Shown one piece after another: positions 2,518-63,591 of a DNA stretch of 64,000 nt. Each line of letters opens with the position of its first letter. Within the stretch, counting starts at the first letter, position 1. Under the pieces are notes generated by a model that was given only the letters and a program-made list of their open reading frames with translations, did not search any database and had not been told where the DNA came from. Both the position numbers and the translations under genes were made by a program. The DNA is from an uncultured Candidatus Rokubacteria bacterium (GTDB taxonomy: Bacteria; Methylomirabilota; Methylomirabilia; Rokubacteriales; CSP1-6): contig CAVVEU010000024.1 of assembly GCA_963747235.1 (NCBI GenBank), positions 94,349 to 158,348 on the forward strand, given 5' to 3'.

Positions 2518-4056
2518 GCGCGCGGCGCTTCGTCCTGGCGCTGGACCAGGGGACGACCGGGTCCACCGCGCTCGTGATCGATCCGGACGGCGGCGTGCGG
2601 GCGCGCGGGTACGCGGAGCTGCCCCAGCATTACCCGCAGCCGGGCTGGGTGGAGCACGATCCGGGGCAGATCTGGGCCACCACCGTGCAGGCCCTCGGCC
2701 AGGCGATGGCCTCGGCCGGGATCACGCGGGCGGAGATCGCGGCGGTGGGCATCACCAACCAGCGGGAGACGACCATCCTCTGGGAGCGCGCGTCCGGGCG
2801 CCCGGTGGGCAACGCCATCGTGTGGCAGTGCCGGCGCACCGCCGCGCTCTGCGACCGGCTGAAGGCCGACGGGGCCGAGCCCGAGATCCGGCGGAAGACC
2901 GGGCTCGTGGTGGACGCGTACTTCTCGGGCACGAAGATTCGCTGGATGCTCGACCATGATCCGGCGCTGCGCCCGCGCGCGGAGCGCGGCGAGCTGTGCT
3001 TCGGGACGGTGGACTCGTGGCTGCTCTGGCAGCTCACCGGCGGCGCGGTGCACGCGACCGATCCGTCGAATGCCTCGCGCACGCTCTGCTTCGACATCCA
3101 TCGCCGCGCGTGGGACGAAGGGCTCTGCCGGATTCTCGGCGTGCCGATGGCGCTGCTGCCGGACGGTGAAGCCGTCAGCGGGCGTGTTCGGAGAAACCGC
3201 AGCTTGGCGAGGCGCAGCCGTAGGCGAGCCGAGCGGATACAGAGAGTCGTCGGGGCTGCCGGGCGGCATTCCGGTGGCGGGGATCGCGGGGGACCAGCAG
3301 GCCGCGCTGTTCGGCCAGGCCTGCGTCGAGCCCGGCATGGCCAAGAACACCTACGGCACCGGCTGCTTCGCGCTCCTGAACACGGGCGAGCGCGCCGTCG
3401 CCTCCACTGAGGGCCTGCTCACCACGGTGGCGTGGACGGTGGAGGGGAGCACCGCCTACGCGCTCGAGGGCGCGGTGTTCATCGCGGGCGCGGCCGTCCA
3501 GTGGCTGCGCGACGGCCTCGGCATCATCCGACAGGCCGCGGAGACGCAGGCGCTGGCCGAGTCCGTCCCGGACACGGGCGGCGTCTATCTCGTGCCCGCC
3601 TTCGTGGGGCTGGGCGCGCCCTACTGGGATCCCTATGCGCGGGGCACGCTGGTCGGCATCACGCGCGGCACCGGCCGCGCCCACCTGGCCCGCGCGGCGC
3701 TCGAGGCCATCGCCTACCAGAGCCGCGACGTGCTCGACACCATGAAGCGCGAGTCGGGCGTGCCGCTCACGTCGCTTCGAGTCGATGGCGGCGCATCGGC
3801 GAACGATTTTCTCTGCCAGTTCCAGGCCGACATGCTGGGAGTGGAGGTGCTGCGCCCGTCGGTGACGGAGACCACCGGGCTCGGCGCCGCCTACCTGGCC
3901 GGCGTGGGCGTGGGGCTCTGGAAGAGCCGGGAGCTGGCCACGCGCTGGAAGCTCGAACGGAAGTTCACCCCGACGATGTCCGACGGCGCGCGCGAGGCGG
4001 CCTACGGCGGCTGGCGCCGCGCGGTCGAGCGGTCGCTGCGGTGGGCGCAGCCGTAA
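2514..4056 (+). CDS. glpK: Glycerol kinase; +1 frameshift near 3161; carries an in-frame palindromic element at 3201-3240
   Basis: [49 protein letters not shown] in frame 3; [34 protein letters not shown] in frame 1. Confidence 0.92.
3201..3240 (+). repeat. Dispersed palindromic element, copy 1 (inside glpK)
   Basis: AGCTTGGCGAGGCGCAGCCGTAGGCGAGCCGAGCGGATAC. 37/39 identical to 63536-63574. Confidence 0.85.
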
Positions 4057-21812: not shown

Positions 21813-22497
21813 GTGATCGCCATCGTCGACTACGGCCGCGGCAATCTCGGCAGCGTGGAGAAGGCCTTCGCGCGGATCGGCATGCCCGCCGTCGTCACCC
21901 AGGACCCGAAGGTGGTGGACGACGCGGAAGCGGTGGTGCTGCCCGGCGACGGCGCCTTTCACGACGCGATGGGTAGCCTCCAGGCGCTGGGGCTGATCGC
22001 GCCGCTCCGGGCGTGCTTCGAGAGCGCGCGGCCGTTCTTCGGGATCTGCCTCGGCTACCAGCTCCTCTTCTCGGAGAGCGAGGAGTTCGGCCAGGGCAAG
22101 GGCCTCGACGTCATCCCGGGCGCGGTGCGGCGCTTCCCGGCCGGGTCTCAAGGTGCCGCACATGGGCTGGAACCAGGTCGCGCACCGGGGCGACCTGCCG
22201 CTCTTCGACGGGATCCCGAGCGGGGCGCACTTCTACTTCGTGCACTCCTACTATCCGGAGACCGCCGACACTTCGCTCCGGGTCGCGACCTGCACCTACG
22301 GGCTCACGTTCCCGGCGGCCGTCTCGCGCGGCGCCCTCCACGCCACCCAGTTCCACCCCGAGAAGAGCCAGCGCTGGGGCATCCGCATGCTCGAGAACTT
22401 CGCGGCCATCGTGCGCGATCGCGCTGAGAGGATCGAGATGGCCGAGGTGCAGCCGAAGGCGAGCCGAGGAGACCATGAACCGCCGAGCGGATGGTAG
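21813..22497 (+). CDS. hisH: IGP synthase glutaminase subunit; +1 frameshift near 22145; C-terminal extension derived from the palindromic element
   Basis: IAIVDYGRGNLGSV, LPGDGAF, GICLGYQLL, then VPHMGWN, FYFVHSY, QFHPEKS in the next frame. Confidence 0.92.
22441..22492 (+). repeat. Dispersed palindromic element, copy 2 (3' end of hisH) plus a second 3'-arm fragment
   Basis: GCCGAGGTGCAGCCGAAGGCGAGCCGAG (22441-22468; 26/28 to copy 5), then GCCGAGCGGAT at 22482-22492. Confidence 0.75.
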
Positions 22498-23230: not shown

Positions 23231-24030
<800 letters not shown>

Positions 24031-36898: not shown

Positions 36899-36937
36899 GG
36901 CGAGGTGAAGCCGAACGGGGCCGAGCCGAGCGAATAC
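36899..36937 (+). repeat. Dispersed palindromic element, copy 4 (variant; rplK-rplA spacer)
   Basis: GGCGAGGTGAAGCCGAACGGGGCCGAGCCGAGCGAATAC, starting directly after the rplK stop codon. Confidence 0.72.
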
Positions 36938-37028
36938 CAGGGGAGAAGCTGGACTCCCGCAGATGAACAGCTTAACGAAGTAAACGGTGTGCGGATCCGA
37001 TAGACAGGACGGAGAACGGGAGCCCAAG

Positions 37029-63535: not shown

Positions 63536-63575
63536 AGCTCGGCGAGGCGCAGCCGAAGGCGAGCCGAGCGGATAT
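63536..63575 (+). repeat. Dispersed palindromic element, copy 5 (infA-rpmJ spacer; best consensus copy)
   Basis: AGCTCGGC-GAGGCGCAGCCGAAGGCGA-GCCGAGC-GGATAT; perfect 7-bp outer inverted repeat GCTCGGC/GCCGAGC. Confidence 0.85.
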
Positions 63576-63591
63576 ATAAAGGGGTAGGGGA

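Follow-up and report, generated by a model that had tools for sequence, protein, structure and literature searches.

A short hairpin repeat that occurs five times in the DNA studied here is probably a previously undescribed family of short, non-autonomous interspersed repeats belonging to one family-level clade of Rokubacteria. The DNA, referred to below as the window, is a stretch of 64,000 nucleotides from an uncultured Candidatus Rokubacteria bacterium (contig CAVVEU010000024.1; C24:94349-158348). Our "probably" covers jointly this classification and the account of how the repeat behaves, namely a hairpin that a trans-acting factor would propagate, that would survive only in the sense orientation of the transcripts into which it falls, and that would be carried as a passenger where it interrupts genes. 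The genome under study, G000, is an assembly of 5.57 Mb with 70.7% G+C in few contigs (42) and with an estimated completeness of 88%, and all genomes compared are metagenome-assembled genomes (MAGs). The relatives of its GlpK likewise place the organism in the uncultured Rokubacteria / Ca. Methylomirabilota.

An earlier note on this DNA described five copies in one orientation, starting at positions 3201, 22441, 23626, 36899 and 63536 of the window (copies 1-5). Pattern search and nhmmer confirm all five, each on the + strand and running in the direction of the genes. A core pattern of 26 nt detects copies at 3209 (1 mismatch), 22444 (2), 23628 (2) and 63544 (0), and it has 0 matches in 100 dinucleotide shuffles of the window; the degenerate copy 4 is recovered by an nhmmer profile search (Table 1). 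Between copies 1 and 5 there are 2 differences in 39 positions, in agreement with the 37/39 identity reported for them. The core GCGAGGCGCAGCCGAAGGCGAGCCGAGCG, present 4-5 times in the window, occurs about 50 times genome-wide in G000 (44 copies when up to 4 mismatches are allowed, and 52 nhmmer hits below E=0.01), a count far beyond the reversed-pattern control (0) that bears out the dispersed family proposed from the window. As a 29-mer with ≤3 mismatches, GCGAGGCGCAGCCGAAGGCGAGCCGAGCG is found 9-64 times per genome in 20/20 genomes of the same genus, and its reversed-sequence control gives 0 matches. Across the phylum Methylomirabilota the repeat is present in 81 of 251 genomes. High counts are limited to some genera of one family, f1 (g1, g4, g21, g32 and g56, plus single genomes of others), and none was found in genera g20, g25 and g31 or in the other families and classes of the phylum in this 251-genome scan. 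Sub-families can be recognized that differ in their flanks and at a few paired positions; the core is kept across genera and the flanks are not.

When 45 copies were compared all-against-all, homology stopped at a median of 2-6 nt outside the 29-nt core (90th percentile, 12-14 nt), and the unit is therefore ∼35-55 nt rather than a piece of a larger element. Direct tandem arrays are common, with periods of 36-54 nt. Several of them end exactly at contig ends (L156, L158 and L159; G152 and G153), which indicates that the repeat breaks short-read assemblies and that the copy numbers are minimum values. The earlier note did not recognize the family, and we likewise found no catalogued match: with Rfam covariance models run on the window only tRNAs reach the gathering threshold, the consensus copy gives nothing meaningful in Rfam at E≤10, and a literature search on Rokubacteria repeats and on the core 17-mer returned nothing relevant. 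Neither blastn against a plasmid collection nor an exact degenerate-pattern search of viral contigs gave a match to the repeat.

The conserved part of the unit is a hairpin supported by covariation. Folds were scored on 95 distinct 37-mers from G000 and 20 other genomes (alignment A2), and the supported fold is a single imperfect 28-nt hairpin, ((..(((.(.(((...)))).)))..)). On the strand co-directional with transcription, the conserved unit reads 5'-GC GA GGC G C (A) GCC [GNA] GGC G A GCC GA GC-3'. It is closed by a GNA triloop, has one A bulged out, and contains non-Watson-Crick pairs: a G.A/A.G in tandem and a further G.A on its own. With this fold, 94.7% of the alignment cells are paired and 28 cells carry double changes, compared with 5.6±1.9 in shuffles (0/500); sliding the fold along the alignment drops the pairing to ≤35%. 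Compensatory changes occur at three pairs: G:C<->C:G (15 sequences), C:G<->U:A/G:C, and G:C<->U.G. The tandem G.A/A.G and single G.A pairs are conserved at 94-99%, the bulged base is A in 85/95 copies, and the loop is GNA in 82/95 distinct copies. The G-N-A triloop drawn in the earlier note is thus retained, but the 7-bp outer stem that it placed around a GGC-GCA-GCC core is not: that fold pairs 67.8% of the cells, no better than shuffles. The outer stem is found in copies 1 and 5 and not family-wide, and it is the minimum-energy fold only for these two window copies, whose flanks are complementary by chance. G.T pairs outnumber A.C pairs 36 to 6 (p=3e-6), which argues for selection of the hairpin on this strand alone. 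Thermodynamic stability was also considered as evidence for structure and set aside as uninformative at 70% G+C.

Orientation follows the genes. Flanking genes were called by codon-position G+C at 45 loci, 30 of which lie between co-directional genes, with 27 copies in sense and 3 in antisense (p=8e-6); a further 7 loci have convergent and 8 divergent neighbors. Relative to the GC-skew (replication) strand the split is only 27:15. A replication-strand bias was therefore rejected as the source of the orientation bias, being weaker than the 27:3 of gene direction, and the direction of transcription is the better correlate. Most copies are intergenic, and about a quarter (∼25%) of the loci overlap open reading frames (ORFs). 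Upstream stop codons are typically 0-35 nt from the element, at times within its 5' flank, and an ATG is located ≤12 nt from the 3' end in 14/45 copies. At C40:410035, between two ketoacyl synthases, the tail of the upstream synthase ends ..GATACATGA/ATGATC.., with ATGA common to the next start; at C8:655485 a 14-codon unit ORF, MIGEAQPKASRADT followed by a stop, overlaps the next ATG; and in G181 the ispF tail overlaps cysS. The consensus-perfect infA-rpmJ copy of the window is also found at the same spacer in G014 and G015. We note that two copies outside the window (G000 C14:181704 and C14:190336) lie 20-40 nt downstream of tRNA genes.

Occupancy of these junctions changes between species. 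Flanks were compared with G014 and G015 for 17 of the 45 loci. Orthologous spacers differ in the presence of the element; nuoC-nuoD, ribE-ribBA and others are empty in close relatives. Unit number differs as well: the yraN-isochorismatase spacer contains 1 unit in G000 and G151, at least 3 in G153 and 6 in G157, and other loci have 1 versus 2-3 units between G000 and G014. The orientation is flipped at the glmS-uvrD spacer, where G015 is opposite to G000 and G014, and at C13:258 kb, where G001 is opposite to G000. Decay is seen in the glpK copy of G006 and G015, with partial deletions in G013 and G014. Variant copies are passed on to orthologues, as with a U:A covariant at C24:552 kb, and homogenization is therefore not rapid. 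As judged from these orthologous sites, copies at gene junctions have appeared, disappeared, multiplied in tandem (1-6 units) and occasionally been reversed over the course of species divergence.

This turnover bears directly on an alternative in which the host uses the element as a cis-regulatory RNA. A specific RNA-binding protein or nuclease would bind the hairpin, and selection would keep it at operon junctions so as to adjust the stability or processing of mRNA or the coupling of translation, with spread being secondary. Several observations would fit such a role. In addition to the sense orientation at 27/30 informative loci and the close spacing to upstream stops and downstream ATGs, G.U is tolerated on the sense strand only, the G.A pairs and the bulged A are conserved above the Watson-Crick pairs, as for a protein-recognition surface, the core is kept across genera while the flanks differ, and a 62-nt element shared by G000 and G014 at one orthologous spacer is unchanged (100% identity) amid diverging flanks. 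However, presence at junctions is not conserved, orientation can differ at the same spacer, old copies decay, and a quarter of the copies are within ORFs, where a regulatory hairpin makes little sense. We consider this alternative rather unlikely, albeit the most serious of those weighed here.

A MITE (miniature inverted-repeat transposable element), or the footprint of a larger transposable element such as the terminal inverted repeats of an insertion sequence, moved by a DDE transposase, would also be dispersed, short, non-coding by itself and polymorphic for presence between species. Such an origin is nonetheless highly improbable. The ∼40-nt unit is far under MITE size, no homology extends beyond about 14 nt on either side of the core in the 45-copy comparison, no element pairs flank a transposase gene, and the target duplication that the earlier note had raised was not seen in comparisons of filled with empty orthologous sites.

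The copies inside genes show what proteins tolerate. In glpK, the element is read in frame c and takes the place of the loop equivalent to residues 230-236 of E. coli GlpK, which we take to be the fructose-1,6-bisphosphate/tetramer loop; 23 aa separate FGET from IPVAG, the length given in the earlier note, and the E. coli protein aligns again from residue 236 onward. The 45-nt insertion is common to 5-6 species: G000, G014 and G015, G005 with 42 nt, G006 in decayed form and, after a partial deletion, G013. About 10 congeners and a sister family have the empty site. A full-length ORF runs through the insert in G014, G015 and G005, so the earlier proposal that the glpK copy is translated stands for these relatives, but the ORF is frame-broken in the G000 assembly itself. 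The hisF insertion follows the AIDA motif containing D130, presumably the catalytic Asp. It is carried by G000, G008 and G004, as a 34-aa in-frame insert in the latter two and within an intact ORF in G004, and the site is empty in 8 congeners. Alignment of GlpK and HisF orthologues, which the earlier note had suggested as a route to empty sites, thus yielded them for both proteins. The hisH copy is read in frame a (..AEVQPKASRGD..) and has a duplicated 3'-arm fragment, GCCGAGCGGAT, at 22484-22494.

Elsewhere in G000, in-frame copies are found in a DprA linker, a CoxM-like FAD subunit, a VOC-family protein and the linker of a ComD-ComE-type decarboxylase. This last copy, between the ComD-like and ComE-like parts of a sulfopyruvate/phosphonopyruvate decarboxylase ORF, is at C40:354109, outside the window. 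The element forms the tails of HemL, HisH and a ketoacyl synthase, and one antisense copy is within the gene for an AsmA-like protein. In other genomes, G002 has two in-frame units in an activase-type ATPase, and in G181 ispF is lengthened in frame by an array of 6 x 15 codons. All seven internal insertions (7/7) use one frame, reading ..GRGAAEGEPSGY.., (A)VAGRGAAEGEPSGY; terminal fusions read another frame, GEAQPKASRAD, and the Arg-rich third frame (b) is never used among the coding copies. Uniform use of one frame, taken with the ispF array, might suggest a repeat selected for its peptide, that is, a mobile coding module GRGAAEGEPSGY adding a functional loop. We find this scarcely credible, because most copies are intergenic, terminal extensions are in the other frame, conservation tracks base-pairing and not codons, and counter-selection of the Arg-rich frame b explains the frame bias. 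In addition, the insert peptide drifts freely among orthologues (WRGAAGGEPSGY, GRGAAVSEPGRY and a degenerate form in G006), as expected of tolerated passengers. The in-frame glpK and hisF inserts of the relatives agree with the non-autonomous, translation-tolerant character that had been proposed for the family.

Two of the genes carrying the element are broken in this assembly. In G000, glpK does not form a single ORF. Its frame is shifted, 40 nt upstream of the element, by an additional base at about 3160-3162, where the assembly has CCGGACGGTG and relatives have CC-GACGGTG; this shift is private to G000. The hisF copy of G000 contains an in-frame TAA (23656-23658) caused by a missing base, and both the stop and the 1-nt deficit are private to G000. 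These breaks are probably uncorrected long-read assembly indels and not a consequence of the element. We note that ugpA is also frame-shifted (window ∼690-720), that further single-base frame changes occur at C4:139.3 kb and C24:84.4 kb, all private to G000, and that similar frame breaks are present in two other few-contig MAGs (G008 and G013). A second hisF-like sequence outside the window (G000 C24:460837-461211), with 69% DNA identity to the his-operon hisF, is presumably a paralogue. The frame errors beside the element are a warning on this long-read MAG and probably not biology.

Table 1. Copies of the hairpin repeat and the glpK frame break in the window (window coordinates)
Feature	Position	Strand	Details
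glpK copy	3201..3254	+	Hairpin core 3207-3235 (GCGAGGCGCAGCCGTAGGCGAGCCGAGCG); core + 3' tail form a 45-nt in-frame insertion relative to empty sites
hisH 3'-end copy	22441..22497	+	Core 22442-22470, 2 mismatches; C-terminal tail ending 8 nt before hisA start
hisF copy	23624..23682	+	Core 23626-23654; insertion starts 2 residues after AIDA (HisF residues 129-133)
rplK-rplA spacer copy, degenerate	36899..36940	+	Starts at rplK (L11) stop codon; nhmmer C24:131240-131285, E=2.6e-6
infA-rpmJ spacer copy, consensus-perfect	63536..63578	+	Core 63542-63570; 10 nt after infA stop, before rpmJ ribosome-binding region
Extra base in glpK	3158..3163	+	CCGGAC versus CC-GAC or CC-CAC in all relatives

The earlier note had also pointed to spread in trans by a RAYT nuclease, as for REP sequences, and here the evidence went the other way. 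A search of G000 with PF01797 (Y1_Tnp) gave no match. Of 15 sampled congeners, 9 have one copy of a RAYT-like gene at a syntenic locus; it matches PF01797 at about 50 bits, has the HUH and Y motifs and encodes a protein of about 295 aa with a C-terminal helix-turn-helix. The corresponding G000 locus (C27:37990-38290, outside the window; orthologues L137, L138 and L140) is an internally deleted remnant, with about 700 bp missing, that is still flanked by its own REPIN-like repeats. The repeat that flanks the RAYT of this genus is a different, AT-richer one, GGGGTCAGGTCTTGAATTACGACATTT, with about 60 copies arranged mostly as inverted doublets 46-83 nt apart, right after stop codons; together, GGGGTCAGGTCTTGAATTACGACATTT and the RAYT are the classical REPIN picture. 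Examples are C27:37897(+), 38221(-) and 38286(-), as well as C24:82829/82912, 11 kb before the window start, and none is located within the window. The hairpin element is within 3 kb of the RAYT at 0/12 loci. PF01797 has no match in 8/8 genomes of the sister genus g32, which are up to 100% complete and carry 20-59 copies of the element, nor in G156, G157, G239, G167, G181 and G020. These genomes show that a Y1/RAYT gene is not needed for the family at high copy number.

The ssDNA hairpins that HUH enzymes recognize (IS608, REP) typically have a bulge and conserved mismatches, and the element has both, along with a conserved 5' AGTG/GTNG-like head beside the imperfect palindrome. Its 5' flank is AGTG/GTGC/GTTC/GTGG-like, with GTAG only where it doubles as the upstream stop codon. 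With a syntenic RAYT in the genus, one could propose that the element is a classical REP/REPIN moved in trans by this Y1 HUH transposase. In addition to the other repeat at the RAYT, the 0/12 loci and the g32 genomes, G000 keeps about 50 copies despite its deleted RAYT remnant, and the copies form direct tandem arrays instead of inverted doublets. As a requirement, RAYT-driven movement is largely refuted, and we hold it to be a very unlikely explanation of the family.

A third hairpin repeat, CCCTCTCCCC-N4-GGGGAGAGGG-(C/T)AGGGTGAGGGG, occurs in G000 (C25:21148, C25:45503 and C5:119832) and in G014 (L177 and L180). At times it is directly 5' of the element, or in its place at the same spacer of a sister species, a juxtaposition that suggests mosaic (BIME-like) hot-spot spacers.

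Taken together, these results lead us to favor the following account. The hairpin would be recognized by a trans-acting factor that propagates it. Copies that are co-transcribed with their neighbors would survive only in the sense orientation, in which the element may act as an intercistronic or 3' untranslated region RNA hairpin, like REP or MIRU, serving as a barrier to 3' exonucleases and/or as a translational-coupling spacer. Insertions in genes would be passengers and not adaptations. They would persist only with a length divisible by three, at a surface loop or a linker between domains, and in the frame that encodes the small, flexible peptide (A)VAGRGAAEGEPSGY; candidate examples of such tolerated sites are the 230s loop of GlpK, the loop that follows beta-5 in HisF, and the DprA, CoxM-like and ComD-ComE linkers.

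A number of points weigh against this account. No trans-acting factor was found in this analysis. Mobility is read from presence/absence patterns only, because neither a target-site duplication nor a sharp border was seen when filled and empty sites were compared. RNA-level selection draws on orientation and the G.U asymmetry, and a strand-specific ssDNA mechanism would give both. At this G+C content the predicted hairpin energy is unexceptional, the core having z=-1.3 and the consensus z=-0.7 to -1.3, and much of the covariation follows subfamilies, so that there are fewer independent events than a count of cells would imply. Copy numbers are minimum values, since the genomes are MAGs and arrays are cut at contig ends, and the frame breaks in MAGs could in principle be real pseudogenes.

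A bolder version of this account invokes a mechanism not yet described for bacterial short repeats, which would be RAYT-independent and either transcription-coupled or RNA-templated, or would use a hairpin-specific enzyme, with the sense GNA/G.A hairpin preferentially inserted at stop/start junctions and proteins remodelled as a side effect. We think such a mechanism improbable. If it were true, it would add loops beside active sites (HisF D130 and the GlpK 230s loop), extend termini and possibly bridge adjacent cistrons (ComD-ComE linker).

These findings add a well-defined small-repeat family, with a covariation-supported fold and clear phyletic limits, for an uncultured and poorly studied soil phylum. 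They indicate that "palindrome in protein" insertions, famous from obligate intracellular Rickettsia, also persist in the large genomes of free-living bacteria, with one in-frame insertion only two residues from the presumed HisF catalytic aspartate. The presence of a RAYT/REPIN system and a RAYT-independent hairpin family within one genome is a counter-example to the paradigm that equates REP with RAYT. In practical terms, the repeat can be masked or modelled in annotation, and the tandem loci can be used as variable-number tandem repeat markers for Rokubacteria populations.

Comparison with known repeat systems places the element among several of them. In the REP/BIME and REPIN-RAYT systems of E. 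coli, Pseudomonas and Stenotrophomonas, REPs are extragenic by definition, form inverted doublets and have a cognate RAYT that is flanked by the repeat. Like these, the element is an imperfect palindrome (about 30-40 nt) whose bulge and mismatches are conserved, present in tens to hundreds of copies just downstream of stops and in intercistronic spacers, where an mRNA hairpin can protect upstream messages. It differs in not being RAYT-linked, in forming direct tandem arrays rather than inverted doublets, in its strong sense bias and in its frequent location within ORFs. Rickettsia palindromic elements (RPEs), reportedly described by Ogata et al. in 2000 as inserted in-frame at surface loops in a manner compatible with function, are 105-146 bp long, restricted to obligate intracellular Rickettsia and not in tandem arrays, and a large fraction of them are coding. 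The element shares their function-compatible in-frame insertion in ORFs (glpK in G014, G015 and G005; hisF intact in G004), and to this extent the label "RPE-like" of the earlier note is apt; it does not extend to the unit, which is ∼40 nt and not 100-150 nt, or to the mainly intergenic placement and the tandem arrays at junctions, which are closer to MIRU, in free-living soil bacteria with genomes of 5-6 Mb. The pneumococcal BOX, RUP and SPRITE elements and the Correia elements of Neisseria are about 100-150+ bp, modular or bounded by terminal inverted repeats, some with candidate transposases and target-site duplications. The element is likewise small, non-autonomous, co-transcribed, RNA-folding and occasionally fused to ORF ends, but the size, modules or terminal inverted repeats, candidate transposases and target-site duplications of these families were not seen for it.

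The closest parallel in behavior is MIRU (Supply et al. 1997), which are 40-100 bp units at about 40-50 loci per genome in mycobacteria, located in operon spacers, co-oriented and co-transcribed with the flanking genes, and variable in tandem number, with unit ORFs that overlap the stop and start codons of the neighbors (ATGA-type), reported 4-bp direct repeats at insertions and no known associated transposase (PMC3184786, PMC12548453). The likeness includes a unit of ∼35-55 nt in operon spacers with 27/30 copies in sense between co-directional genes and a tandem number that varies at orthologous loci (yraN-isochorismatase: 1, 1, at least 3 and 6). Overlaps with neighboring stop and start codons are clear in individual examples (C40:410035, C8:655485 and ispF/cysS of G181). 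The differences are that the conserved part of the element is a covariation-supported hairpin, that a quarter of its copies lie within ORFs or are joined to them, some in internal loops of housekeeping enzymes, and that the 4-bp direct repeats of MIRU were not seen. MIRU is also from another phylum and presumably unrelated in sequence; with Methylomirabilota/Rokubacteria as the host, common descent is unlikely. The element thus behaves most like MIRU, with a REP-like hairpin and RPE-like coding tolerance, while departing from each in a defining feature, and we place it as one more family of small non-autonomous bacterial interspersed repeats.

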